This document shows, one piece after another, positions 12,521-62,440 of a stretch of DNA of 64,000 nucleotides. The stretch comes from a virus, in IMG/VR virus record IMGVR_UViG_3300025120_014916, positions 72,410 to 136,409 of that record; one strand, given 5' to 3'. Position numbers and translations under genes: made by a program. The first letter of the stretch is position 1, and each line of letters starts with the position of its first letter. Under the pieces are notes generated by a model. That model was not told where the DNA came from and searched no databases. It worked only from the letters and a program-made list of their open reading frames with translations.

Positions 12521-12593
12521 GACATTCCTTGTTATACATTAGATATATATTCTTTTGTTTAAATTTGTTGTCATGTTAATTTAAAAGTTTATT

Positions 12594-18145: not shown

Positions 18146-18175
18146 AAGTTTAAAATCCTCTCCAAATATATACTA

Positions 18176-18203
18176 ATTTTATACTTCTGTCATTAAAAGT
18201 AAA
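18176..18203 (-). promoter_or_regulatory. Candidate sigma70-type promoter TTTACT-N16-TAAAAT
   Basis: Read on the minus strand upstream of the GGAGAGG RBS of the 18145 gene. Confidence 0.4.
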
Positions 18204-18237
18204 CTTTTTTATAGCAGAATTAGTATACAGGCTTAAC

Positions 18238-19080: not shown

Positions 19081-19161
19081 TTTTCACCATATTATTAGAG
19101 ATATATCAAAACTGTATCAGCTATGTTAAGATATACTAAGTTTACACAAAATATATTAGAT

Positions 19162-19474
19162 TTACACAACTAGTTCTGGGTCGTACAAAGTATACTTTGC
19201 AGTTAATTCTTCGTTGGGCTGTATGTCTTTTATTGTTACTAGAAATAAATAGTCATCATCCTTTAGTATTTTACAGTTTGGCTTATTTGGATTGTGATTA
19301 AAAAACCCGCCCAGTGGAGTTCTTATGTAATTATTTATTATTTTCAAAGAGCGGGTTAAAAATATGGGTTAATCCTAAATTTGTATTTTTTTTAATACTT
19401 GCTGTTGCAAACAGACCTAATCCGTGGACTTTCGATTCTTTGATTGTTAAAGACGCTGGCAAGGGTTTAAACAT
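19162..19474 (-). pseudogene. Small SET-domain lysine methyltransferase, frameshifted by a 7-bp tandem duplication
   Basis: ATG at 19474 gives MFKPLPASLTIKESKVHGLGLFAT...FENNK*. The other frame continues NYIRTPLGGFFNHNPNKPNC...EELTAKY. ATTATTT occurs twice at 19330-19343, and removing one copy gives a 101-aa intact SET ORF. Confidence 0.85.
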
Positions 19475-25885: not shown

Positions 25886-25891
25886 GTTAAC

Positions 25892-25919
25892 ATTATACTT
25901 TTCTTTATCTAAATGTACA
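25892..25919 (-). promoter_or_regulatory. Candidate sigma70 promoter TGTACA-N16-TATAAT, 6 nt before the ATG (leaderless)
   Basis: Minus strand reads ATGTACATTTAGATAAAGAAAAG-TATAAT-GTTAAC-ATG; no SD. Confidence 0.5.
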
Positions 25920-25924
25920 TTAAT

Positions 25925-32035: not shown

Positions 32036-32162
32036 TTAAACACTCTTTTTTCTAATAACGATTAGATATATTCTTAAAAATATATATTTCTAAGTAACCG
32101 TGCTGATTTTTATTAGTTTTTAGATTTCTTTTATTAAAAATTTTAGTTAGTTTTTTCACTTT

Positions 32163-37728: not shown

Positions 37729-37797
37729 ATGTATACTCCTGTTTCTAGAAGTATACTATGATAAAAGATAATTTATAATATCAAGTCAGTATTAATA

Positions 37798-44273: not shown

Positions 44274-45632
44274 CTAAATTATTTCCGCTGCTATAGAAGA
44301 TAAATATGACCTTTCTCCCTTTTTTAACTGTACATGGCCTGCAACTTTTTCATTTTTAAATTTTTCGCTAACAATAGTCAGACCATTAGAGTGTGAATCT
44401 ATGTAAGGCGTATCAATTTGATCAACATCACCTAGTAAAACAATTTTACTATTTTCGCCAACTCTTGTAATTACTGTCTTTAATTCATGAATAGTGCAGT
44501 TTTGTGCTTCATCCATAATTAAAAAAGTATCAGCAAATGTTCTTCCTCTCATGAAAGCTAGGGGTGCAATCTCAATATCCCCCTTATCTCTCATTGAACT
44601 AAAGTATGTAAGGTCATTATCTTTCAAACCTTGACGAAAGTTATCCATGATTGGTGCTATCCATGGAAGCATCTTATCATTCATATCGCCCGGTAAAAAT
44701 CCTATATCCCTACCAACAGGCTGTACATTTCTAGTGATAACAATTCTTCTATATCTTCCTGCATGCAATCCTTCTATTCCTGCTAATAATGTTAAGTAAG
44801 TCTTTCCGCTGCCCGCTAGTCCGGTTATTGAAACAAGTGGAATAGAATCATCATTCAAAAGGTTAATTGCATAAAGCTGTTCTCTATTTCTTTCTTTTAC
44901 CCAAGCTAGACCACTACTCATTTCTTCACTACTTTTTAGTTTTTTAATATTGCCTTCCGAGTAAAATCCTAAAAAGGATTGACTTCCTGATTTTAAACAA
45001 ATAAATTCGTTTTCTAGAAATTTTCTTCCTAAACTCTTTTCTGCTGCAGTTAAAATGGTCTTATTATGTGAATGCAGATCAGAATAGCACATATCTATAA
45101 TATAATTGTCACTATCTTTTATTTCTATATCGACATAACCTCTATAGAATTCTTCATCTGCTAAATCTATTTTATCTTTAAGATAGTCTTGCGCAGTAAT
45201 CCCCAGTGCATCACACTTAACTCTGAAGTTAATGTCTTTTGTTACCATTATGACAGGACATTTATTTTTTTGAGTTAATTCTAAAGCTAATCCGATCATC
45301 TGATTGTCTGGGGAAGACGCGTCCAATCCTACTGGTACCTTGTATTTTGTTTTAATATCAACTTTTATTGTTTGATTACTTCTATTTTGTATCTCTATGC
45401 CTGAATGTAAATTTCCAACCTTTCTTAAATTATCCAAATATCTGTTTACATATCTCGCATTTTCACCGATTATACCTTTTTTATCTTTAAACCTATCTAA
45501 TTCATCAAGTGCTACTAACGGTATAAGTACATCATTACCAGAAAAAGAATGAATTGAGCACCTATCGTAAAGCATCACGCTGGTATCTAAAATAAATATT
45601 TTTCTATTTTTATCTGTTTTTAACTTAGACAT
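44274..45632 (-). CDS. phoH: PIN-PhoH fusion ATPase (YlaK/PhoH2-type)
   Basis: PIN motif ILDTSVMLYD..LDELDRFK; GLAGSGKT; GFLPGD; MRGRTF; DEAQN; GDVDQID. Start placed at ATG 45632 behind AAGGTGA. Confidence 0.93.
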   Translation of the reverse strand: MSKLKTDKNRKIFILDTSVMLYDRCSIHSFSGNDVLIPLVALDELDRFKDKKGIIGENARYVNRYLDNLRKVGNLHSGIEIQNRSNQTIKVDIKTKYKVPVGLDASSPDNQMIGLALELTQKNKCPVIMVTKDINFRVKCDALGITAQDYLKDKIDLADEEFYRGYVDIEIKDSDNYIIDMCYSDLHSHNKTILTAAEKSLGRKFLENEFICLKSGSQSFLGFYSEGNIKKLKSSEEMSSGLAWVKERNREQLYAINLLNDDSIPLVSITGLAGSGKTYLTLLAGIEGLHAGRYRRIVITRNVQPVGRDIGFLPGDMNDKMLPWIAPIMDNFRQGLKDNDLTYFSSMRDKGDIEIAPLAFMRGRTFADTFLIMDEAQNCTIHELKTVITRVGENSKIVLLGDVDQIDTPYIDSHSNGLTIVSEKFKNEKVAGHVQLKKGERSYLSSIAAEII

Positions 45633-45714
45633 TATACATTTCACCTTTTTTTTGTTTTTTTTAAGTAGACCGGTTATTATTATAAGTATAACACGTTAAA
45701 AGGTATAAATAAAT

Positions 45715-45954
45715 ATGAAACAAAAATGCTTTGAAAAATGCTCTTCAGAAAAAAAGAATTGTAGTGTTAATGCATGCAGATACTGGATAGAAGCTAAGGA
45801 ATATAACAACTGCTGTATAGTTGGCGCAAACTCTAGTGAAAAAATTACATTACAGAATATAGGTGAAATATTTAAAGTAACTAGAATGAGAATATGTCAA
45901 ATAGAAAAAATAGCTGTTAAGAAGCTTAAAGAAAAAGTTGTTTCGATACTGTAG
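45715..45954 (+). CDS. Stand-alone sigma-70 region-4 HTH protein with a Cys-rich N-terminus
   Basis: ITLQNIGEIFKVTRMRICQIEKIAVKKL matches TL.EIG..F.VTRERIRQIE.KAL.KL; six Cys in the N-terminal half. Confidence 0.75.
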   Translation: MKQKCFEKCSSEKKNCSVNACRYWIEAKEYNNCCIVGANSSEKITLQNIGEIFKVTRMRICQIEKIAVKKLKEKVVSIL

Positions 45955-45981: not shown

Positions 45982-46011
45982 AAAAGGGGATCAAATATGA
46001 TCCCCTTTTTT
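45982..46011. terminator. Bidirectional intrinsic terminator
   Basis: AAAA-GGGGATCA-AATA-TGATCCCC-TTTTTT between convergent genes. Confidence 0.8.
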
Positions 46012-46037: not shown

Positions 46038-46226
46038 CTATTCATTCTTATCATACGTCAAAGAACTTTTTACAAGATCAGCTGCAGCTTTTTTAACTTC
46101 GCGTAATGCTTTTCTTGCTCTAACACCTGCTGATTTATTACCTTGCGCATTTTTAAGTACATCTGTTTGAAGTGTTTCAACAAGTACTTTTAATTCTTCG
46201 TATTGTGTAACAATTGTTTCGTTCAT
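46038..46226 (-). CDS. Histone H1-like nucleoid protein, short Hc1 family
   Basis: KNAQGNKSAGVRARKALREVKKAAADL matches the Hc1 core GNKAAG.RARK. Confidence 0.75.
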   Translation of the reverse strand: MNETIVTQYEELKVLVETLQTDVLKNAQGNKSAGVRARKALREVKKAAADLVKSSLTYDKNE

Positions 46227-46237
46227 GATTATCTCCT

Positions 46238-46498
46238 CTAGTTTAAAAGAATTTTATTTTTGTTGCTGTCTTTATCTATATTATTACTATTTTCTTCTGC
46301 GTTAAAATTTGAACCAAACTTTTTTAAAAAACTAGCTATTTTTTTCATATTTTCATTATCCTCTAATGACATTGCAAGGTTAAGCATTATTTCTATTTTT
46401 TGCTCATCTGTTACGCCAAATTCTAAGATTGTTTTACAGATTTTTCTTGCCTCTTTTTTTCTATTTAATAACTCAATAGCTTTCTTTTTTTCTGACAT
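46238..46498 (-). CDS. Hypothetical protein
   Basis: 86-aa ORF within the operon, 2-11 nt spacings. Confidence 0.65.
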   Translation of the reverse strand: MSEKKKAIELLNRKKEARKICKTILEFGVTDEQKIEIMLNLAMSLEDNENMKKIASFLKKFGSNFNAEENSNNIDKDSNKNKILLN

Positions 46499-46500
46499 TT

Positions 46501-46968
46501 TTACTCCACAATATCAACAATTACATTGTTTTTAATTTTAAAAATATTAGACGATGATACTTCTATAGTTTTTACATGTTGTTTTTCATCTATTATCTCT
46601 CTTCTTAACACAACGACTTCACCCCATCTTTCTTCTTCAAATATGTCTACTATTTGTTCCCAATTAGATATATCAGTTTCTATTTTTATAAGTGCGTTTG
46701 TCAGCCTTTCTGGTAGCATGTATCCTAATTCTTCTATAGAGACTGTTAAACTGCTTTGATCTTTTCCGCCTCTTATCTCTGATCTACATATGTCTTTAAC
46801 GTGGTGCATCGTATCACAGTTGTTGCACTTTACTAGTTTTGGAATTACATTTCCATTCTTATCAAACTTAGAATATACTGGAAATTTGTGACTAGGCATT
46901 TCTTTTTTTACAGCCCTATATATTGCTAAAACACAGTGACACTCTATTAAATGCTTAATTCCCTGCAT
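46501..46968 (-). CDS. Hypothetical Zn-binding protein
   Basis: HLIECHC...CNNC..MH...C; overlaps the end of the chaperonin-like gene. Confidence 0.6.
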   Translation of the reverse strand: MQGIKHLIECHCVLAIYRAVKKEMPSHKFPVYSKFDKNGNVIPKLVKCNNCDTMHHVKDICRSEIRGGKDQSSLTVSIEELGYMLPERLTNALIKIETDISNWEQIVDIFEEERWGEVVVLRREIIDEKQHVKTIEVSSSNIFKIKNNVIVDIVE

Positions 46969-48205
46969 GTATGACCAGCCTATCTATTTGTGAATATATA
47001 TTTTTTATACTGTTTACCTTTTTATTGACAAAATTTATCAAATTTTTTGGTAGATAATAGGCTGAACTATTAAGACTTACAACACAGAATACTTTATTTG
47101 AATGACCGGTCAACCTCATCATATAATCAACTTCTCTTATAAAGTCATTATTAGAATATAAAATTTCAGGTATAAATAGTTTAATTGACTTATTAGTAAA
47201 CCTCTTTATCCTTTTAGATAATAGTTTTTTACTTTCTTCGTGCACTGTTATTTTATTTAATTTATTACTAAGAAAAGATCGATGAATTACTAGATCCGCT
47301 TCCGAAGCAACAGGTTTTATTTTAAAACCTTTTTTATGAAATGTTATTTCTCGACCTACCGATAAATTGCTTCGAACAGCTTGTGATATTGTCTCTCCCG
47401 TCCTACTAGAAACAATATTATCTTTATGCAGGACTGCTATATCATTTAGTACATTTATTGTATTTTCATCAAATGTTATGATAATAGGCATAACTTCAAA
47501 CTTGCTATGTGAATTATTATGTTTTATTACATGACTTACTTCATCTGACATTCCAAAACAAAAAATTACATGAGGTACTTTTGTTTTATTTGCCTGGTCA
47601 AGTAAATGGTGTATTTCGCCTATTGATTCTACATACCCGTCAATTATGATAAACTTGTAATCACTCATTGTGTGGAAGTCTTTACCTCCTAAAAATGATG
47701 TGTCGTAATCTAGATCAAAATTAAGAACGTTCTTTTTTTCAACATATATATCTGTTAACTTACTACTATGAATACTAACAGTGTACTCGCGCGAAGCATT
47801 TTCAATAATCCATTTAAAAATGGATTTTAACTCTTTAAATTTAAAGCTATCAATAAAGTATTTTGATGAATCTTTGCAAAATAGATGTTTATCATAAATT
47901 TCTTTATTTTCTTTTGAAAAATACTTCTTAATAAAAAAGTCTCCCAAGTATGGGTATATCTTTTCACATTCAATAAATTCTTTTTTTAATAATAACTTTA
48001 ACTGTTCTTTGCACTCATTACCAGAAAAAGTATTTAAGTAGTTTAATGCTTGATCTGAAACTAAATTCATATCAGAGTAAAGACATTGCTGACTATTCCT
48101 TAGATCATCGAACATTATATTGCTTTCATCTAAGAAATTATCAACTTCCTTTCTATTAAAAACTTTTTTCTTTTTAGGAATCACGCCATAAGTTGTTTGC
48201 TGCAT
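46955..48205 (-). CDS. Degenerate GroEL/Cpn60-like protein lacking the GDGTTT motif
   Basis: KFIIIDGYVESIGEIHHLLDQANKTKVPHVIFCFGMSDEV...LNDIAVL..IVSSRTGETI parallels the GroEL apical domain; 416 aa; no ATP-binding loop. Confidence 0.75.
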   Translation of the reverse strand: MQQTTYGVIPKKKKVFNRKEVDNFLDESNIMFDDLRNSQQCLYSDMNLVSDQALNYLNTFSGNECKEQLKLLLKKEFIECEKIYPYLGDFFIKKYFSKENKEIYDKHLFCKDSSKYFIDSFKFKELKSIFKWIIENASREYTVSIHSSKLTDIYVEKKNVLNFDLDYDTSFLGGKDFHTMSDYKFIIIDGYVESIGEIHHLLDQANKTKVPHVIFCFGMSDEVSHVIKHNNSHSKFEVMPIIITFDENTINVLNDIAVLHKDNIVSSRTGETISQAVRSNLSVGREITFHKKGFKIKPVASEADLVIHRSFLSNKLNKITVHEESKKLLSKRIKRFTNKSIKLFIPEILYSNNDFIREVDYMMRLTGHSNKVFCVVSLNSSAYYLPKNLINFVNKKVNSIKNIYSQIDRLVIHAGN

Positions 48206-50102
48206 ATGTCAATATCTCTTCAGCTGAATTCTCATTGTAACCATATTCTTCCATTAGAGTTACAAGCATCTCGCTGTATCTTTTCTTTTGGTTGTCATCT
48301 CTTGATTTTGATTTTGTAACAATCCTGGAAATGTCCTTTACAGATGTAATAAGGTATTGTTCTACTGCATCTTTTAGAGGCCCATAAGATTTATAATCAA
48401 CTGTTTCTTTTCTTCGTAACTTAGAAAACATATAAGCAGTTACATCAGATCTAAAACCATCTCTAGCTGATCCGACCACACCAATCATCTCTTCAATAGA
48501 TTTCATGAATTTTTCATCAGGTTGTCTTTCTTCTCTGGTTATTTTGTCTTTAAATCTAGTCTTAGTTGTATAAGCCTCTGCGTTATCTAGATAAGAATCA
48601 AAAAGTGACTGCGCTTGTTCTTCGTAAGCTGTTATAAAAGCTTTCGCGATTTCTGTTTCTAGTATTCTTAAGTATTCTTCGCGAATAATCTTACCTAATA
48701 TCTCTGTGTATCTACTTTTTGCTTCTTCGTCAATTATTTGTTCTTTTACTTGTCTAGACAGCGAGTCAATAACATTTATAGGAGTTATCATGTTTTTATC
48801 AGAATCTGAAAGAGCTGCGTCCAATGCTTTCATGATAAATCTAGTTGAAATTCCTTCCATTCCTTCATGCTTAGCTTCGTCTTTTAAGTCTTTAATATCT
48901 ACTTTTTTAACACGACCTTTTTCTATAATTGCTTCACCATTATAGATTTTCATTTTAGTAAGTAGATCGCACTTATTTGATGGCTTAAGTCTACTCATAA
49001 CTGAAAACATGGAAGCTATTTTTAAAGCATGAGGTGCAATATGCGCTTTATTAAAGTCTGATTTTCTAATAACTTTTTCATAAATTTTCTGTTCTTGATC
49101 TAATTCTAAAACATAAGGTACTTCAATCTTTAACACCCTATCCAGAATAGCCTCGTTGGTGTGTTCAGATTTAAATCTGTTCCACTCTGATTCGTTGCAA
49201 TGTGATAATATTACGCCATCAAAGTAGATCATATCGTTCTTACCTGGGGAAGGTACACGCTTTTCTTGTGTTGCAGTTAACATTGTATGCAAGAATTCAA
49301 TTTCATTTTTAAATACTTCAACAAATTCAACGATACCGCGGTTACCAACGTTAAACGCACCGTTAAGAGATAGGACTCTGGGATCATCTTCTGGATAAAG
49401 ATCTAGTTTACTAATGTCTTCAGTTCCAATCAATACAGAGACATCCTGGGAGTTTGCATCCATAGGAGGCACCACAGCTATACCTCTGCGCCCTCTTTGA
49501 GAAAAAGTAGTCTGGGTGACTGGAAAATTTTCATATTTTCCATCAAATTCTGTCATAAGCCGGTGGCGACAAACTGGGCACAGATCACCTTCTAAATGTA
49601 CACCCAGAATATCTTCAAATTCTGACCTTAGTCCTCGAGGAAGTAAGTGAAGTGGCTCTTCTTTGATTGGACAACCTTCCAAGTGATAAAAAGGCTGGGA
49701 GGACTCTAAGGACCTTTTTACAGCTTCTACTAACGCAGATTTTCCGGCACCAACTGGACCCATGAGCAAAAGTACTTGCCGGCTTTCTTCACCTTTATGT
49801 GCTGCTGACTTTAAAAACCTCATCAGTTTGTTAATAACTGATTCCATTCCAAAAAACTCTTTTTCAAAATAGTCGTAAGTTCTAATCTTGTCACCATTAA
49901 ATATGTCTCTATATTGGTCTGAATCAACATCAACAGTATCCATTCCAAACTTTAAGATGGCTTCGTAAAGTCTTTTATGGGCAAGTTTAACTGTTTCCGG
50001 TTCTTCTTGTATGACTCTTAAGTAATCTAGAAAAGTTCCTTTAAACTTTTTATATTTTGAAGCTGATCTTTGTTTTTTGATCATATCTAAAAAATTGCTC
50101 AT
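48174..50102 (-). CDS. prkA: PrkA/YeaG AAA+ protein
   Basis: Walker A GPVGAGKS, LAHKRLY, CPIKEEPL, NRGIVEFVEVFK, HCNESEW, EGMEGISTRF, YGYNE.SA.EIL.YAANNLW. Confidence 0.95.
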   Translation of the reverse strand: MSNFLDMIKKQRSASKYKKFKGTFLDYLRVIQEEPETVKLAHKRLYEAILKFGMDTVDVDSDQYRDIFNGDKIRTYDYFEKEFFGMESVINKLMRFLKSAAHKGEESRQVLLLMGPVGAGKSALVEAVKRSLESSQPFYHLEGCPIKEEPLHLLPRGLRSEFEDILGVHLEGDLCPVCRHRLMTEFDGKYENFPVTQTTFSQRGRRGIAVVPPMDANSQDVSVLIGTEDISKLDLYPEDDPRVLSLNGAFNVGNRGIVEFVEVFKNEIEFLHTMLTATQEKRVPSPGKNDMIYFDGVILSHCNESEWNRFKSEHTNEAILDRVLKIEVPYVLELDQEQKIYEKVIRKSDFNKAHIAPHALKIASMFSVMSRLKPSNKCDLLTKMKIYNGEAIIEKGRVKKVDIKDLKDEAKHEGMEGISTRFIMKALDAALSDSDKNMITPINVIDSLSRQVKEQIIDEEAKSRYTEILGKIIREEYLRILETEIAKAFITAYEEQAQSLFDSYLDNAEAYTTKTRFKDKITREERQPDEKFMKSIEEMIGVVGSARDGFRSDVTAYMFSKLRRKETVDYKSYGPLKDAVEQYLITSVKDISRIVTKSKSRDDNQKKRYSEMLVTLMEEYGYNENSAEEILTYAANNLWRDS

Positions 50103-50141
50103 TGTTTCCTCTTTTAATCTATGCTGTTATACATTTAGTAT

Positions 50142-50170
50142 ATTATACTGTTGTTAATGAATTGTTTAAA
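50142..50170 (-). promoter_or_regulatory. Candidate internal sigma70 promoter TTTAAA-N17-TATAAT for prkA
   Basis: Read on the minus strand; AAGAGGA RBS follows. Confidence 0.5.
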
Positions 50171-51497
50171 TTTCCCATACATCATTTTCAATAATTGTAA
50201 ATAATTTTACATCGCCTTCTTGCCATAAATGCCTTATGCTTTCCACTACATTGTCTGCATAGTCCAGATCTAGGTCGCGGCCATCATGTTCATGCTTTAA
50301 AACCAAAGTTCCGTCTGAGTCGATTCTATCTACATAGATGTGTGGTATTGTATTGACGCCTGTATTTTTGATCATTTCGCTTCTTACTATTTGCCATTCC
50401 TCTTGATCTGATACTTCTGCTATGAATATATCGCCATTCTTCTTTCTTTCGTAAGCAAACATGTTTAATTCTCTAAAATCTTCTTCTTCTAGGAATAATC
50501 TAATTGCTGATACATCATCATGTATTTCTCTAACTTCAAAACATTTTTCTAATCCAAACTCTTTTTCAAGTTTTTGGAATATATAGAAACCTACGTGATA
50601 GGGGTTAACTCCCCCAATATGTGGCCGGACAACTGCATTGTGCATTTTAAGAAAAGGAACATGCATTCCATCATCTAGTTGAAGTTCATGTAGAATTTTG
50701 TAATGCCAAAAAGATGCCCAGCCTTCATTTAATATTTTTGTTTTTATCTGGGGCATAAAATAATGACTTTCATCTTTAACTATTTCAATTAAGTCTAATT
50801 GCCATTTTTCATAGCCGCGACTATACTCTAATAAAAAAGATAATAAATCATGATCTTGTTTAAGCAATCTTTTATTTAAAACATTGTAGTCTAATAATAT
50901 TCCTTTTTCTTTATAAATGTTAAATCTATCAATCTCTGCTGTTTTAATTTCTGATTTTGATCTTCTGGGAATTCCGTACCTTTCTGTTTGAAACCTGACA
51001 GTGTGTAAACTATCTAAAAACTTTTCTACTTTCTCTTGACCTATATTAGGATCTTCGGTGTACTCTTGAATTCTACGTTTAGCATTTCTCATTTTAGAAA
51101 CTATGGTTTCCGGATCTGTTTTACTAAAACATCTATTATTTTTAAAAAAGTCACTATGACCTACGCAATGAGCCATAATCAAGACTTGCAAATAAAAATC
51201 ATTTTGTAGCATTAAATAAGCTATTGAAGGATTTGAGTTAATGATTAATTCATAAGGAAGACCACTTTGACCCATATTATACATAAAGTGTGTTTTTTCA
51301 AATGATTTACCATAAGACCAGTGATTATAGTGACTAGGCATTCCATGATATGCCATATGTCCAATCATTTCATAATAGTCACAAATTTCATAATTAATAG
51401 GATACCAGTCTAGATCATATTTTTTTGCAATTTCGCATATCTTATCATCAAATACTTTAAGGTCTTCTATTTTATACTTATCTTTATTGAACTTCAT
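50166..51497 (-). CDS. spoVR: SpoVR/YcgB family protein
   Basis: GMPSHYNHWSYGK, YELIINSNPSIAYL, MAHCVGHSDFFKNN, TKILNEGWASFWH, NPYHVG, HDGRDL; start at ATG 51497 behind GGTGG. Confidence 0.93.
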   Translation of the reverse strand: MKFNKDKYKIEDLKVFDDKICEIAKKYDLDWYPINYEICDYYEMIGHMAYHGMPSHYNHWSYGKSFEKTHFMYNMGQSGLPYELIINSNPSIAYLMLQNDFYLQVLIMAHCVGHSDFFKNNRCFSKTDPETIVSKMRNAKRRIQEYTEDPNIGQEKVEKFLDSLHTVRFQTERYGIPRRSKSEIKTAEIDRFNIYKEKGILLDYNVLNKRLLKQDHDLLSFLLEYSRGYEKWQLDLIEIVKDESHYFMPQIKTKILNEGWASFWHYKILHELQLDDGMHVPFLKMHNAVVRPHIGGVNPYHVGFYIFQKLEKEFGLEKCFEVREIHDDVSAIRLFLEEEDFRELNMFAYERKKNGDIFIAEVSDQEEWQIVRSEMIKNTGVNTIPHIYVDRIDSDGTLVLKHEHDGRDLDLDYADNVVESIRHLWQEGDVKLFTIIENDVWEI

Positions 51498-52656
51498 ATT
51501 TACCACCAAGAAGTCTAGAAAACTCAGGCCAGATATCTTTTTTACCTGAGACTTTTACCACCTTAAAACTATCTGATGACAGTGGCTCGAATACTTTTGC
51601 CATTTCTTCTCCCCACATAGATTCTTTCTGGCCTTTTATTTGAATATAACCAGATAATTGACTAAGATTAATTAATCTTTCCATATAATCTACTGCTTTA
51701 ACATTGTCTTCTTTCCAGTTTTCACCATCTGAGCAGTGGAAAGTATATATATTCCAAGCGCTTGGGGAATATCTTTCATTTACAATATCATGTGCCATTT
51801 TAAGACCGGAGCTTATGTAAGTACCACCCGATGAACCTTTTTTAAAAAAATCATCTTCGTTAACTTCTTGAGCTTCTGTTGAGTGAGAAATAAATACTGT
51901 TTCAATATTTTGATATCTATACCTTATAAACTGATATAGTAAGAAAAAGAACGATCTGGCCAAATATTTTTTAGTTTTTGTCATTGAACCTGACGTGTCC
52001 ATTATGAAAAATATTACTGCACTAGTAACCGGTTTTTTAGTAACCTCTATGTGCTTATATTTCAAATCATCATCATGAAAAGTAAATCTTTCATCACCTT
52101 CCGGATCGTGTGTACCGTTTCTTATTGCAGCTTTTTTTCTTCTTATCTTATTTTTAAGTGTTTCTTTTTTTGAAAGTCTAGGTCTTATCCCTTTTGTTCT
52201 ATATCCTTTTCTTTTTACTTTTTCAGAAAATATTTCTGCAGATTTCTTTTTAACTAGATCAGGCAAGTCTAAATCATCAAATAGATACTGGGCTAGTTCA
52301 TCTAAAGATACTTCAACATCATAGTAGTCTTCGCCCTTTTCGTTTCCCGGCTTATCAGGGTCTCCTTTACCTTTTTGTTTTTGTCCTTCTTTTATCTTCT
52401 GACCCTTTTTAATATCAGATCCAGGTGCAGCACCTACCCCCTTAGATCCGTTTCCTTGATCGTAAATGAATCTGTATTCTTTCATACCTCTTACAGGTAT
52501 CTTAATCTTCTTTTTTCCACTCTTTCCTATAATGCTTTCTTCAGCTATAATATCATGAATGCCTTCTTTGATAGCTTTATCTATTTTTTCTTTATGTCTT
52601 CTTCTATCTGATGCTGATCGATCAGCATTAGTATTGTGTTTTTTAAATATTGACAT
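51484..52656 (-). CDS. yeaH: YeaH/YhbH (DUF444) VWA-domain protein
   Basis: DRRRHKEKI..AIKE, FDDLDLP, DDLKYK, FIMDTSGSM (MIDAS), SGGTYISS, WNIYTFHCSDGENW. Confidence 0.93.
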   Translation of the reverse strand: MSIFKKHNTNADRSASDRRRHKEKIDKAIKEGIHDIIAEESIIGKSGKKKIKIPVRGMKEYRFIYDQGNGSKGVGAAPGSDIKKGQKIKEGQKQKGKGDPDKPGNEKGEDYYDVEVSLDELAQYLFDDLDLPDLVKKKSAEIFSEKVKRKGYRTKGIRPRLSKKETLKNKIRRKKAAIRNGTHDPEGDERFTFHDDDLKYKHIEVTKKPVTSAVIFFIMDTSGSMTKTKKYLARSFFFLLYQFIRYRYQNIETVFISHSTEAQEVNEDDFFKKGSSGGTYISSGLKMAHDIVNERYSPSAWNIYTFHCSDGENWKEDNVKAVDYMERLINLSQLSGYIQIKGQKESMWGEEMAKVFEPLSSDSFKVVKVSGKKDIWPEFSRLLGGKYEVQ

Positions 52657-52742
52657 TAATAAATTACCTCTCTATGCTATAATTATACCTATAATTATTA
52701 TGAGGTATATAGAAATTTATGAATAATGAATTATTATGTATA

Positions 52743-52766
52743 ATAAAAGTACATATGTACATTTAT
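52743..52766. repeat. 24-bp near-perfect palindrome in a divergent intergenic region
   Basis: ATAAAA-GTACATATGTAC-ATTTAT; perfect 12-bp core, 11 of 12 arm pairs match. Confidence 0.7.
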
Positions 52767-52834
52767 AAAAATACTTTAAAGAATAATTATATTTAAATGT
52801 TAGGATAATAAAATTAATCTAGGAATAAGTTGAG

Positions 52835-55298: not shown

Positions 55299-56078
55299 GT
55301 GAAAAAAATAAAAATAATGAGGGGTATTATGTTTGGTTTTATTATAATCCTTTTCATATTTGGTTGCATGAATATGAAAAGTGATAACGTAAGCAAAGGT
55401 GTAGAAAACTACTTTAATAAAAGTGTTGATAATAGATATAAAATTGGCATTGACAATTTTGTTTATATGGTTAAAAAACATCAACTAGATATTGGTTGTG
55501 AAGGCATGACAGATATTCCTGTTTGCATACCCGTCATAACATCAACTGCATCCGGTTTAGTTTTTTCATCAGATGATAATTCAGTTTTTATATTAACAGC
55601 AGCTCACTTTTGCAAAAGAAATATCATACCCGGTGCATCTGAACAAATCACGGGAATAGCTAAAGATCAAGAGCGACCATTATCAATACTTGCAACTAAT
55701 GAAGAAGCTGACATATGCCTTCTAATGGGTGTAAGATACGCAAATGAAACCTTCAATCAGATCATTTTAAAATTTGAAGAACCTAACTTAGGTTCAGATG
55801 TATATACTGTAGCGGGTCCTAACGGAGTAGGCGGACCCGGGTTTCGTCCGGTATTTACTGGAAAATTTGCCGGATGCGATAAAAAAAATTGCATGTCAAC
55901 ACTTCCTGCAACCTTTGGATCGAGTGGTGCTGGAATATATACAAAAGATGGAAGGCTTATTACCATAGTAATGGCAGTTACAGAAGGATTTGAAAACTTA
56001 ATATTAAGTCCGTCACAAAAAGACTTACAAAAATTTATTCTTACTATTGATAGTGCGGTAGATATTTATTCTTACTAG
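55299..56078 (+). CDS. Trypsin-like (S1) serine protease with an N-terminal membrane or lipoprotein signal
   Basis: ILTAAHFC, DICLL, FGSSGAGI; hydrophobic leader ending FGC. Confidence 0.85.
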   Translation: MKKIKIMRGIMFGFIIILFIFGCMNMKSDNVSKGVENYFNKSVDNRYKIGIDNFVYMVKKHQLDIGCEGMTDIPVCIPVITSTASGLVFSSDDNSVFILTAAHFCKRNIIPGASEQITGIAKDQERPLSILATNEEADICLLMGVRYANETFNQIILKFEEPNLGSDVYTVAGPNGVGGPGFRPVFTGKFAGCDKKNCMSTLPATFGSSGAGIYTKDGRLITIVMAVTEGFENLILSPSQKDLQKFILTIDSAVDIYSY

Positions 56079-61276: not shown

Positions 61277-61324
61277 AAGATATCTACCTTTGTTTACAAT
61301 ATAAATATAATCAAAATATATATT

Positions 61325-61561
61325 TTATACCAACTTGTTTATAAATCTTGTTGATATCCAACTCATTTCACCTGAAGAATTCATTATCTTACAAATAATT
61401 ATTTCTTTATTCTTTGAAGAAGTAGGATCGATTAAACTAGTTTTCATAATATCTATAACTATAAAGTAGCCGTCATAAAACAGCAAATGCACAGGCATGC
61501 TTCCACTTAAGTGTGCTGTGTGCGATTCACGCGTGACAATATCCCCAATTACTATTCCCAT
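61325..61561 (-). CDS. Small hypothetical beta-rich (SH3/KOW-like) protein
   Basis: IVIGDIV...GYFIVIDI...NSSGEMSWI pattern; weak. Confidence 0.5.
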   Translation of the reverse strand: MGIVIGDIVTRESHTAHLSGSMPVHLLFYDGYFIVIDIMKTSLIDPTSSKNKEIIICKIMNSSGEMSWISTRFINKLV

Positions 61562-61586
61562 CCCAAATAGTAAGTATGCTTAAAAC

Positions 61587-61614
61587 AAAAAAAGGGATCA
61601 AAAGATCCCTTTTT
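61587..61614 (-). terminator. Intrinsic terminator
   Basis: A7-GGGATC-AAAA-GATCCC-T5, 22 nt past the stop of 61637..61873. Confidence 0.75.
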
Positions 61615-61636
61615 AAATCATCATATCTAATCTTTA

Positions 61637-61873
61637 TTAGATAGAATCAATCACAGCGCTTTTATCTTCTACAATAAGATATTGATTAAGAAATCGTTGA
61701 AAAGCACGTGCTTCTTTGACAGTCATTGTCATCTGAGTTACCATCCCGGTATACTTGCCATCCTGAGGATTAGTACCGATAATAACAGTATTTGAACCAG
61801 CTTTGTGACTAGTCTCATTACGATTAATTTGAAAGTTAAAACGCTTGGTAGACTTAGACTTTGAATATGACAT
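61637..61873 (-). CDS. Small monocistronic hypothetical protein
   Basis: 78-aa ORF with AAGGGA RBS, its own promoter and terminator. Confidence 0.7.
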   Translation of the reverse strand: MSYSKSKSTKRFNFQINRNETSHKAGSNTVIIGTNPQDGKYTGMVTQMTMTVKEARAFQRFLNQYLIVEDKSAVIDSI

Positions 61874-61928
61874 ATGTTTTTTCCCTTTTGATTAATTTAT
61901 ATTAATTGGTTGTTTTACCAATATTAAT

Positions 61929-61957
61929 AGTATACAATAGATACCTGTTCTTTACAA
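61929..61957 (-). promoter_or_regulatory. Sigma70-type promoter TTGTAA-N17-TATACT
   Basis: Exact 17-nt spacing; near-consensus -35 and -10 hexamers. Confidence 0.7.
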
Positions 61958-61967
61958 ATAATAATAA

Positions 61968-62261
61968 CTATTTTTCCCACCAAATGTTAGCAACATCCCA
62001 GTCTATCATTTCACATAACCAGATAGGTAAAGAGCCTACACACTCAAAATCAAACCACTCACCCTTGCAATCTTGTTTATAGGGCTTCAACGTTGTATGC
62101 AGAGACCTTTCTAATTTGCCCTTACCGTTTACTACAGCTAGCAGCTTAAGTGCATACGGTGAACCGGTCTGTAGTTGTGTCATACGTCGCTTCGGGTTCT
62201 TGCTACGACCGATTTTAATAGCACCGGTAATATCTGATTGGATCACGTATAAATCATTCAT
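61968..62261 (-). CDS. GIY-YIG family nuclease (T5orf172/MUG113-like)
   Basis: LYVIQ..AIKIGRSKNPKRRMTQLQTGSPY.L..LERSLH..KGEWF. Confidence 0.85.
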   Translation of the reverse strand: MNDLYVIQSDITGAIKIGRSKNPKRRMTQLQTGSPYALKLLAVVNGKGKLERSLHTTLKPYKQDCKGEWFDFECVGSLPIWLCEMIDWDVANIWWEK

Positions 62262-62267
62262 ATCTAT

Positions 62268-62295
62268 ATTATACTTATTTTTTTAAAAATATAAA
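62268..62295 (-). promoter_or_regulatory. Candidate promoter TTTATA-N16-TATAAT, 6 nt before the ATG (leaderless)
   Basis: Minus strand reads AAG-TATAAT-ATAGAT-ATG; no SD. Confidence 0.4.
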
Positions 62296-62345
62296 TATAA
62301 CTATTGAACGTTTTTTCAAAAGTTCTGCCAAATTTGCCCGGGCCT

Positions 62346-62373
62346 AAAAAATAAAAAGCCAGTGCCAACTGGC
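62346..62373 (-). terminator. Intrinsic terminator
   Basis: GCCAGU-UGGC-ACUGGC followed by UUUUUAUUUUUU, downstream of 62441..63460. Confidence 0.75.
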
Positions 62374-62430
62374 GCGAGCTGCCCTGCCCTATGAACGCCG
62401 AGTAAGACCCCCTAGGGTCCTTCTCGTCTG
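62358..62430 (-). ncRNA. Candidate structured RNA or cis-element of unknown class
   Basis: 47 of 73 nt are G+C in an AT-rich genome; hairpin CGAG-A-AGGACCC-UAGG-GGGUCUU-A-CUCG upstream of the terminator hairpin. Confidence 0.3.
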
Positions 62431-62440
62431 ACTATGCTGT

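Follow-up and report, generated by a model that had tools for sequence, protein, structure and literature searches.

A complete set of the genes yeaH, spoVR and prkA, which form the PrkA/YeaG-YeaH-SpoVR trio of bacteria, is encoded in a 64,000-nucleotide stretch of viral DNA (hereafter the window), bases 72410–136409 of the 136-kb IMG/VR virus record IMGVR_UViG_3300025120_014916. Because this 136-kb record is rated only ~40% complete by CheckV, the window is regarded as a fragment of a jumbo phage. Nearly all window genes lie on the minus strand, baseplate-wedge genes are present, and the G+C content is ~30–40% and even along the whole window. The trio opens a run of seven co-directional minus-strand open reading frames (ORFs) at 52656..46038, consisting of yeaH, spoVR, prkA, a gene for a GroEL-like protein, a gene for a probable zinc-binding protein (Zn), an 86-amino acid ORF (s86), and hc1. 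Judged by gene content and position among relatives, the seven genes are two separable modules, and the seven-gene extent is a synteny specific to the clade of the window phage. Module A was defined as yeaH-spoVR-prkA and module B as the GroEL-like, Zn, s86, and Hc1 genes together with, beyond them, the sigma-70 region-4-like and PhoH genes. The preferred reading, to which a probability of roughly 55% is assigned, is that of two neighbouring, separable modules of which module A would be a cellular trio inherited by the phage for the turnover or remodelling of host proteins.

The annotation of yeaH, spoVR, and prkA as full-length genes with Walker, MIDAS (metal ion-dependent adhesion site), and SpoVR motifs, made in an earlier note on this DNA, was confirmed by Pfam and NCBIfam, which agree with each other, and by homologue alignments (table 1). 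YeaH is closest to the short Firmicute-type YhbH. PrkA scores 476.9 bits against PF08298 and 252.8 bits against PF06798 (cut-off 25 each), and its residues 5–637 match a solved PrkA structure (PDB 9xip) end to end (E = 1.5e-98). The conservation of motifs was measured over 106–138 phage and bacterial homologues, depending on the protein. In PrkA, the Walker A motif is GPVGAGKS at residues 115–122 (the Bacillus subtilis counterpart lysine is K108), residues E259, E262, N303, R322, and R371 are kept in at least 96% of 138 homologues, and the phage proteins retain the kinase-like C-terminal domain in full. In YeaH, the MIDAS residues (D220-x-S222-x-S224, T279, and D310) are kept in at least 96% of 126 homologues, and residues H114, H118, D120, E262, H269, and H290 of SpoVR are conserved across its homologues. 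The start codon of spoVR is a TTG at 51509, with an alternative ATG 12 nt downstream. The three lie side by side on one strand, as they do in all relatives that carry them. The ratio of nonsynonymous to synonymous substitution rates (dN/dS), computed between the window and the relative nearest to it, was 0.067 for yeaH, 0.054 for spoVR, and 0.06 for prkA, so that the triad lies at 0.05–0.07, compared with 0.16–0.32 for the four genes downstream (about 0.3 for the 86-amino acid ORF); for module B a range of 0.16–0.41 was obtained. All of these are rough values because dS is saturated (>1.4, and undefined in some pairs). Overall, the triad is complete and, as these ratios indicate, under strong purifying selection.

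Relatives were collected in a first IMG/VR scan that gave 30 viral contigs and a wider scan in which a relative of PrkA is encoded by at least 542 contigs; from these, the best 80 loci were fetched, and counts given below for the closest contigs or the 80 relatives refer to this set. All best 80 belong to the clade of the window. The order yeaH-spoVR-prkA was found in 30 out of 30 contigs of the first scan and is fixed throughout the clade. PrkA is the most conserved gene product of the region (64–88% identity among the first 30 contigs), and more than 120 protein database clusters show at least 80% identity to it, several of them from Tara and other marine metagenomes. A blastn search of the 6.7-kb block against GenBank phages gave no match, and the baseplate gene of the window reaches at most 32% identity to an uncultured huge phage, a Microcystis phage, and Flavobacterium phages. 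By these sequence comparisons the marine clade is without a close cultured relative.

The nearest true cellular copies belong to a “type II” paralogue carried by a minority of the Clostridia (Cellulosilyticaceae, Clostridium, and Ruminiclostridium; loci L040–L114 and L133–L137), with identities of 56–61% for PrkA, 48–50% for YeaH, and 40–42% for SpoVR. Type II was found in 5 out of 101 sampled Bacillota, one of which (G146) carries both types, and type II PrkA is ~40% identical to the canonical PrkA of the Bacillota. The phage PrkA shows 36–42% identity to the canonical Bacillota protein and 32–35% to proteobacterial YeaG. The cellular module, prkA (yeaG/spdA)-yhbH (yeaH)-spoVR (ycgB), consists of the same three full-length families with the same motifs, adjacent and on one strand, but cells have the order prkA-yeaH-spoVR (69 out of 76 nearest bacterial loci) whereas the phage clade, of a lytic-type jumbo phage, has yeaH-spoVR-prkA, which bears out the earlier observation that the order is permuted and prkA comes last. 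Gene order is not a functional criterion, because E. coli has the trio split over two operons. In the phylogenetic comparison with cellular copies that the note had called for, quick maximum-likelihood trees placed the phage clade on a single branch for all three genes (support 99 for PrkA, 93 for YeaH, and 97 for SpoVR), and the PrkA tree groups this clade with the Clostridia type II paralogue (support 100). The trees point to a single en-bloc capture of the triad; they are unrooted, so that the transfer may have gone in either direction between phages and Clostridia.

Complete triads are also present in the Thermus phages phiYS40, TMA, Lalka8, and phiLo, in the order DUF444-SpoVR-(x)-PrkA, and in RsoM2USA, a jumbo phage of Ralstonia, and three huge phages of 630–640 kb, in the proteobacterial-type order prkA-yeaH-spoVR. 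The huge phages with a triad are LR745206, LR756502, LR756504, and LR756511, one of the four having a divergent set. These triads resemble that of the window in comprising full DUF444, SpoVR, and PrkA proteins, and the Thermus phages share the order of the marine clade, but they differ in being only ~30–34% identical and independently acquired, and in lacking the GroEL-like/Zn/Hc1 block beside the triad. In the tree, the PrkA of RsoM2USA nests within the Pseudomonadota, and because of this placement phages are taken to have captured the trio repeatedly: at least two lineages of large phages that are unrelated to each other, and probably three or four, acquired the complete trio.

The trio has been on record in phage genomes since that of phiYS40 in 2006, PHROGs families exist for all three genes, PrkA and SpoVR are named in the annotation tables of the RsoM2USA paper (PMC8504454), and viral spoVR was reported to be the most abundant “sporulation” auxiliary metabolic gene (AMG) in viromes of oxygen-minimum zones (PMC8940887). 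Given the triads of phiYS40, TMA, Lalka, RsoM2USA, and the huge phages, together with the PHROGs families and the viral spoVR AMG, the suggestion that the window holds an undescribed system had to be abandoned. There is good support for counting the triad as one more instance of a module that phages were known to carry; here its order is permuted and the aquatic clade that has it is very large. A new kind of system is not established. A search of one literature library found no paper that handles the phage trio as a system. Like phoH and viral spoVR among the marine AMG-type genes (PMC8940887), the trio represents host-derived stress genes kept by aquatic phages; in that study, however, spoVR stands alone and is read as a sporulation gene, whereas here it is part of a complete trio whose cellular role is not specific to sporulation. 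The complete trio thereby revises the interpretation in which viral spoVR counts as a sporulation AMG.

The function proposed for module A follows from work on the cellular trio. YeaG of E. coli, renamed SpdA, is needed for a largely non-specific, starvation-induced degradation of cytoplasmic proteins that supplies amino acids and ATP (PMC13684143, 2026), an ATP-dependent protease activity was described for PrkA of B. subtilis (PMC9512850), and in six bacteria the genes yeaG, yeaH, and ycgB show cofitness with r > 0.7 (bioRxiv 10.1101/072470). A literature search for a structure of the YeaG/YeaH complex gave no relevant match. Since every family-wide residue is kept, the phage trio is expected to act like the cellular one. 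In the proposed sequence of events, an ancestor of the large uncultured clade of aquatic jumbo phages would have captured the trio once, after which the gene order was cyclically permuted. PrkA would be the AAA+ ATPase, YeaH its VWA/MIDAS partner, and SpoVR a third obligatory component, and the three would act jointly, as in cells, to turn over or remodel cytoplasmic proteins in an ATP-dependent and largely non-specific manner. During the long infection of a nutrient-limited host by a jumbo phage, host protein could in this way yield the amino acids and energy needed to make virions, and the trio would be an auxiliary host-takeover function rather than a switch for sporulation or dormancy.

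The trio is among the most widespread poorly understood bacterial modules. Its repeated capture, together with a dN/dS of ~0.06 in a clade of hundreds of contigs, argues that the three proteins form a host-portable machine, sufficient in itself, from which the phage gains during infection. The interest of the finding lies in the fact that a complete starvation module, itself poorly understood, has been captured repeatedly and is strongly conserved. The idea that phages recycle host protein in starved cells is testable, as cultured carriers exist (the Thermus phages and RsoM2USA).

Several observations weigh against a separable module for host protein turnover. The biochemistry of PrkA is disputed, with negligible protease and kinase activity of B. 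anthracis PrkA in vitro (PMC13001217) and a reported kinase activity of E. coli YeaG, and the setting of a starved host is assumed on the basis of the marine sources of the homologues. Furthermore, module B follows the triad directly in 76 of the 80 closest contigs, and the prkA stop and the GroEL-like start overlap by 29–32 nt in most near relatives, which fits co-expression and could mean a functional link. The same two observations favour the view, put forward in the earlier note, that the seven genes together make up a single integrated machine for proteostasis or dormancy in which an ATPase-dead GroEL-like protein serves as the substrate adaptor of PrkA/YeaH and the Zn and Hc1 proteins are further parts. 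The genes are also co-directional, overlapping, and closed by a single conserved terminator, and PrkA, a chaperonin fold, and a transfer-messenger RNA (tmRNA) gene after hc1 in 24 out of 80 relatives make a coherent theme. However, in G001, a 278-kb genome (84% complete) that holds both modules, the triad lies at ~26–30 kb and the GroEL-like/Zn/Hc1/sigma-4/PhoH block at ~116–126 kb, a separation of ~95 kb. In the same sublineage the block occurs without an adjoining triad behind a divergent glycosyltransferase homologue (L226–L228), and no PrkA was found in one of these three, a 212-kb contig. Conversely, the triad occurs without module B in several sublineages, namely in L024–L029, L033, L035, and L039, where it is followed by convergent genes (L024, L025, L027, and L033) or giant ORFs (L026 and L028), and none of the independently acquired phage triads is accompanied by module B. 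The content of module B is plastic, with a small gene lost in the window and one or two extra genes in other relatives, and its GroEL-like gene evolves 4–6 times faster than prkA. Finally, the synteny upstream of yeaH is equally conserved, so that the adjacency of the two modules looks like ordinary genome collinearity that is not specific to an operon. A single seven-gene machine is therefore unlikely. The split in G001 and the separate occurrence of each part weigh against the earlier claim of a seven-gene functional unit with a chaperonin adaptor, and of the claimed linkage with the GroEL-like and Hc1 genes the adjacency in most of the closest contigs stands while an obligatory association does not.

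A different role for the triad itself, as a signalling device in which PrkA would be a Ser/Thr kinase and, jointly with YeaH and SpoVR, would reprogram the stress, stationary-phase, or dormancy regulation of the host, is also improbable; a starving host might, for example, be kept metabolically competent, or its entry into dormancy blocked, while it is infected. YeaG is described as a kinase required for adaptation to nitrogen starvation (PMC4664914), cofitness data led to the proposal that the trio is a conserved signalling pathway (bioRxiv 10.1101/072470), the kinase-like C-terminal domain of PrkA is fully kept in the phage proteins, and PhoH and sigma-4-like genes lie close by. However, kinase activity was not reproduced for the PrkA proteins of B. 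subtilis and B. anthracis, and the kinase P-loop is degenerate (PMC9512850, PMC13001217), the 2026 data from E. coli assign YeaG a role in bulk proteolysis in place of the dormancy control suggested in the earlier note (PMC13684143), and no substrate or regulator gene is found consistently beside the triad across the phage lineages.

A broader picture in which the region is a phage “proteostasis island” is quite doubtful: an ATPase-dead protein with a GroEL fold, translationally coupled to prkA, would capture host or nascent proteins, the tmRNA of the relatives would tag them, and the triad would unfold or degrade them, amounting to a bulk recycling of protein run by the virus.

Pairs of AAA+ and VWA proteins are typically assembly chaperones, and the triad might by analogy be a MoxR-like pair for the morphogenesis or maturation of a virion or replication complex that is not directed at the host. 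The Lalka8 triad lies between portal/minor head genes and TerL, the phiYS40 triad adjoins TerL, and structural genes are also present in the window. However, the neighbours in the marine clade are PhoH, UvdE, nucleotidyltransferase, and similar genes and not head or tail genes, the 56–61% identity to cellular copies and the retention of all family residues leave no visible retargeting, and in most phages, and in most jumbo phages too, assembly proceeds in the absence of a module of this kind, all of which makes this role very unlikely.

The notion that host DNA makes up the block, through a chimeric assembly or a contig wrongly called viral, has a negligible probability and is already refuted by synteny and phylogeny: although the three families are typically cellular and five close homologues sit in bacterial metagenome-assembled genomes (MAGs), those five MAGs are of unrelated taxa and show phage gene order and phage neighbours, base composition does not shift across the window, phage genes are syntenic on both flanks of the triad in ~100 viral contigs, and the nearest true cellular copies are just 56–61% identical in PrkA and differ in gene order. 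The five MAG homologues are the best matches among GTDB genomes (67–71% identity), in MAGs labelled Luteolibacter, Methylococcaceae, Halobacteriovorax, Legionellales, and Bdellovibrionota, and because of their phage gene order, phage neighbours, and unrelated taxa the contigs are interpreted as mis-binned jumbo-phage DNA. They correspond to L035–L039, an example being NHDW01000006.1 (306 kb) in the “Methylococcaceae TMED69” MAG, and one Halobacteriovorax MAG holds its own PrkA too, which is 35% identical. The phage-borne nature of the block, as originally claimed, thus agrees with the two-sided synteny, the monophyly, and the even composition.

Within the run, yeaH and spoVR overlap by 26 nt, prkA and the GroEL-like gene by 32 nt, and the GroEL-like and Zn genes by 14 nt; gaps of 2 and 11 nt separate s86 from Zn and hc1 from s86, respectively, and a spacer of 63 nt lies between spoVR and prkA. 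Near relatives contain a hairpin and T-run of unrelated sequence at the same site after hc1, and the retention of the position despite unrelated sequences indicates a real terminator. The ORF map and the terminator hairpin are in agreement with the description of the run as continuing with overlaps through hc1 to one terminator, and the seven genes of the window phage probably form one transcription unit that is read through from module A into module B up to this terminator.

Table 1. Features of the yeaH-spoVR-prkA region in the window and tmRNA genes in relatives; positions are window positions unless a locus is given.
Feature	Position	Strand	Details
yeaH/yhbH (DUF444), VWA-type with MIDAS	51484..52656	-	390 aa; PF04285 E 1.9e-115, 386.8 bits; TIGR02877 yhbH 4e-122
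spoVR/ycgB	50166..51509	-	447 aa; PF04293 6.7e-111, 371.3 bits; SpoVR_C PF24755 28.9 bits
prkA/yeaG (spdA), AAA+ ATPase with PrkA C-terminal domain	48174..50102	-	642 aa; PF08298 5e-143; PF06798 5e-75
GroEL-fold protein, short and divergent	46955..48205	-	416 aa; start overlaps prkA stop by 32 nt
Probable Zn-binding protein	46501..46968	-	155 aa; invariant CxC...CxxC and four His
86-aa ORF (s86)	46238..46498	-	near relatives 34–59% identity (tblastn)
Hc1-family histone-H1-like DNA-binding protein	46038..46226	-	62 aa; PF07432 E 5.3e-12, 45.9 bits (cut-off 23.5)
Sigma-70 region-4-like protein	45715..45954	+	79 aa; PF04545 8.5e-9; syntenic with GroEL-like, Hc1, and PhoH genes
PIN-PhoH protein	44274..45644	-	456 aa; PF02562 2e-53, PF13638 1e-25
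Divergent A/T-rich intergenic region, likely promoter region of the run	52657..52834		upstream of yeaH; GGTATAAT and Shine-Dalgarno GAGAGG
Promoter-like TTTAAA-17-TATAAT, possible internal promoter	50142..50170	-	in spoVR-prkA spacer; not conserved across the clade
Intrinsic terminator	45982..46009	-	12-bp GC-rich hairpin (5 GC pairs in stem) and T-run; ends the run
tmRNA genes in relatives	L020:5725-6130, L018:13990-14347, L019:12491-12859, L030:13289-13688, L034:13425-13765, L037:11474-11836		

The promoter-like box that had been assigned to prkA is present in the spacer, but sigma-70-like sites are not more frequent in the window than expected by chance (57 compared with 50.9 ± 7.5 in shuffles) and the spacer is reduced to only 2–5 nt in several relatives, so that the box stands and its status as a clade-wide promoter does not. 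An internal prkA promoter in the sublineage of the window is possible on the evidence of these motifs. One relative carries a 730-nt insertion with an extra ORF in the spoVR-prkA junction (L006:7273-8001), indicating that the triad tolerates interruption at this point. AGTATA-type boxes are ~5-fold enriched on the coding strand in the intergenic DNA of the window (10 out of 46 sites in 4.6% of the sequence), and the box upstream of prkA is one of them. The AGTATA box is a candidate −10 element of phage promoters; base composition may explain part of the enrichment. The intergenic regions with such boxes are 18146–18237, 19081–19474, 25886–25924, 37729–37797, 50103–50165, and 61277–62440. The T4-type late motif TATAAATA has 12 sites in the window compared with 11.5 expected and none upstream of the triad. 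An element GTATAAT...AGCATAGA common to the upstream regions of yeaH and prkA was rejected as not significant (equalled in 11 out of 100 shuffles). At window positions 12521–12593 and 32036–32162, a near-identical AAGAATATAT(AT)CTAAT lies directly 5′ of a gene start; it is possibly a member of a second class of promoter or regulatory elements.

The GroEL-like protein of module B matches chaperonins only weakly by sequence, in the intermediate and apical domains (NCBIfam GroEL 9e-8, 30.8 bits with a cut-off of 352; phrog_5725 2e-11), and no match to Pfam Cpn60 (PF00118) was found in the protein or anywhere in the 136-kb record. No match to the protein was found among GenBank phages. The Foldseek PDB matches listed for its AlphaFold model (18 homologues; predicted local distance difference test, pLDDT, 83) are all group I GroEL/Hsp60 proteins, the best with an E value of 2.5e-18 at ~10% identity. 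An hhalign comparison with a bona fide 540-amino acid phage GroEL aligned residues 125–374 only and placed Y361 at the position of GroEL D398; the N-terminal equatorial part is unalignable by sequence, and no nucleotide-binding or GDGTTT-type motif is recognisable in the protein. The phage GroEL chaperonins for comparison are gp146 of Pseudomonas phage EL and gp246 of Pseudomonas phage OBP (PHROG 5725; ~545 amino acids), with which the window protein shares the chaperonin fold and the sequence similarity in the intermediate and apical domains but from which it differs in its length of 416 amino acids, the missing Cpn60 match, and the Tyr at the position of the catalytic Asp398. “Pseudo-GroEL”, the name given in the earlier note, is a fair one, and a loss of the ATPase may be inferred from the sequence; the chaperonin fold is borne out by AlphaFold and Foldseek, although the protein stays below the Cpn60 domain cut-off and the ~545-amino acid length. 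The family alignment was too divergent for a pattern scan, and a scan with the single protein from G001 gave three loci. G001 encodes a normal-length GroEL of 540 amino acids (L118:967-2589) in addition to the short GroEL-like protein, and a normal-length GroEL (540–545 amino acids) is found in the more distant relatives G001 (L118) and G003 (L117).

The invariant residues of the Zn protein are C10, C12, C48, and C51 together with H6, H11, H27, and H55; its AlphaFold model (pLDDT 85) gave no fold match in the PDB, and a protein atlas gives weak zinc-knuckle leads. The 86-amino acid ORF has no family match in Pfam, PHROGs, or NCBIfam, and Hc1 is kept in relatives at 47–72% identity. A further gene of 65–84 amino acids lies between the GroEL-like and Zn genes in every relative (e.g., L005:9189-9443) and is missing from the window; together with the 14-nt overlap of the GroEL-like and Zn genes (46955–46968) this suggests a recent deletion in the window. 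Some relatives contain another gene of 154–162 amino acids in module B. The PhoH gene travels with the GroEL-like/Hc1 block and not with the triad. PADLOC defence-system models gave no match except a weak one between PrkA and DolB, at the level of the P-loop (E = 1e-5).

In the 24 relatives with a tmRNA gene after hc1 (PrkA identity 68–75%), the gene is on the same strand and takes the position of the terminator in the window, 5–100 nt from hc1, apart from one locus with 746 nt. The 136-kb record that contains the window gave no tmRNA. The ends of the tmRNA tags vary (...YDYALAA, ...SVRLAA, ...NMEMAA, and ...IYAIAA), which may reflect different hosts.

A Trypsin_2 peptidase gene is located at window positions 55299–56078 on the plus strand and adjoins yeaH divergently in the relatives L152–L154; in the sublineage of the window, the UvdE, nucleotidyltransferase, and DUF5824 genes are inserted between the two. 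The peptidase was considered as a partner protease of PrkA and rejected, because its N-terminal hydrophobic segment ends in a lipobox-like FGC and the protein is thus probably an exported lipoprotein.

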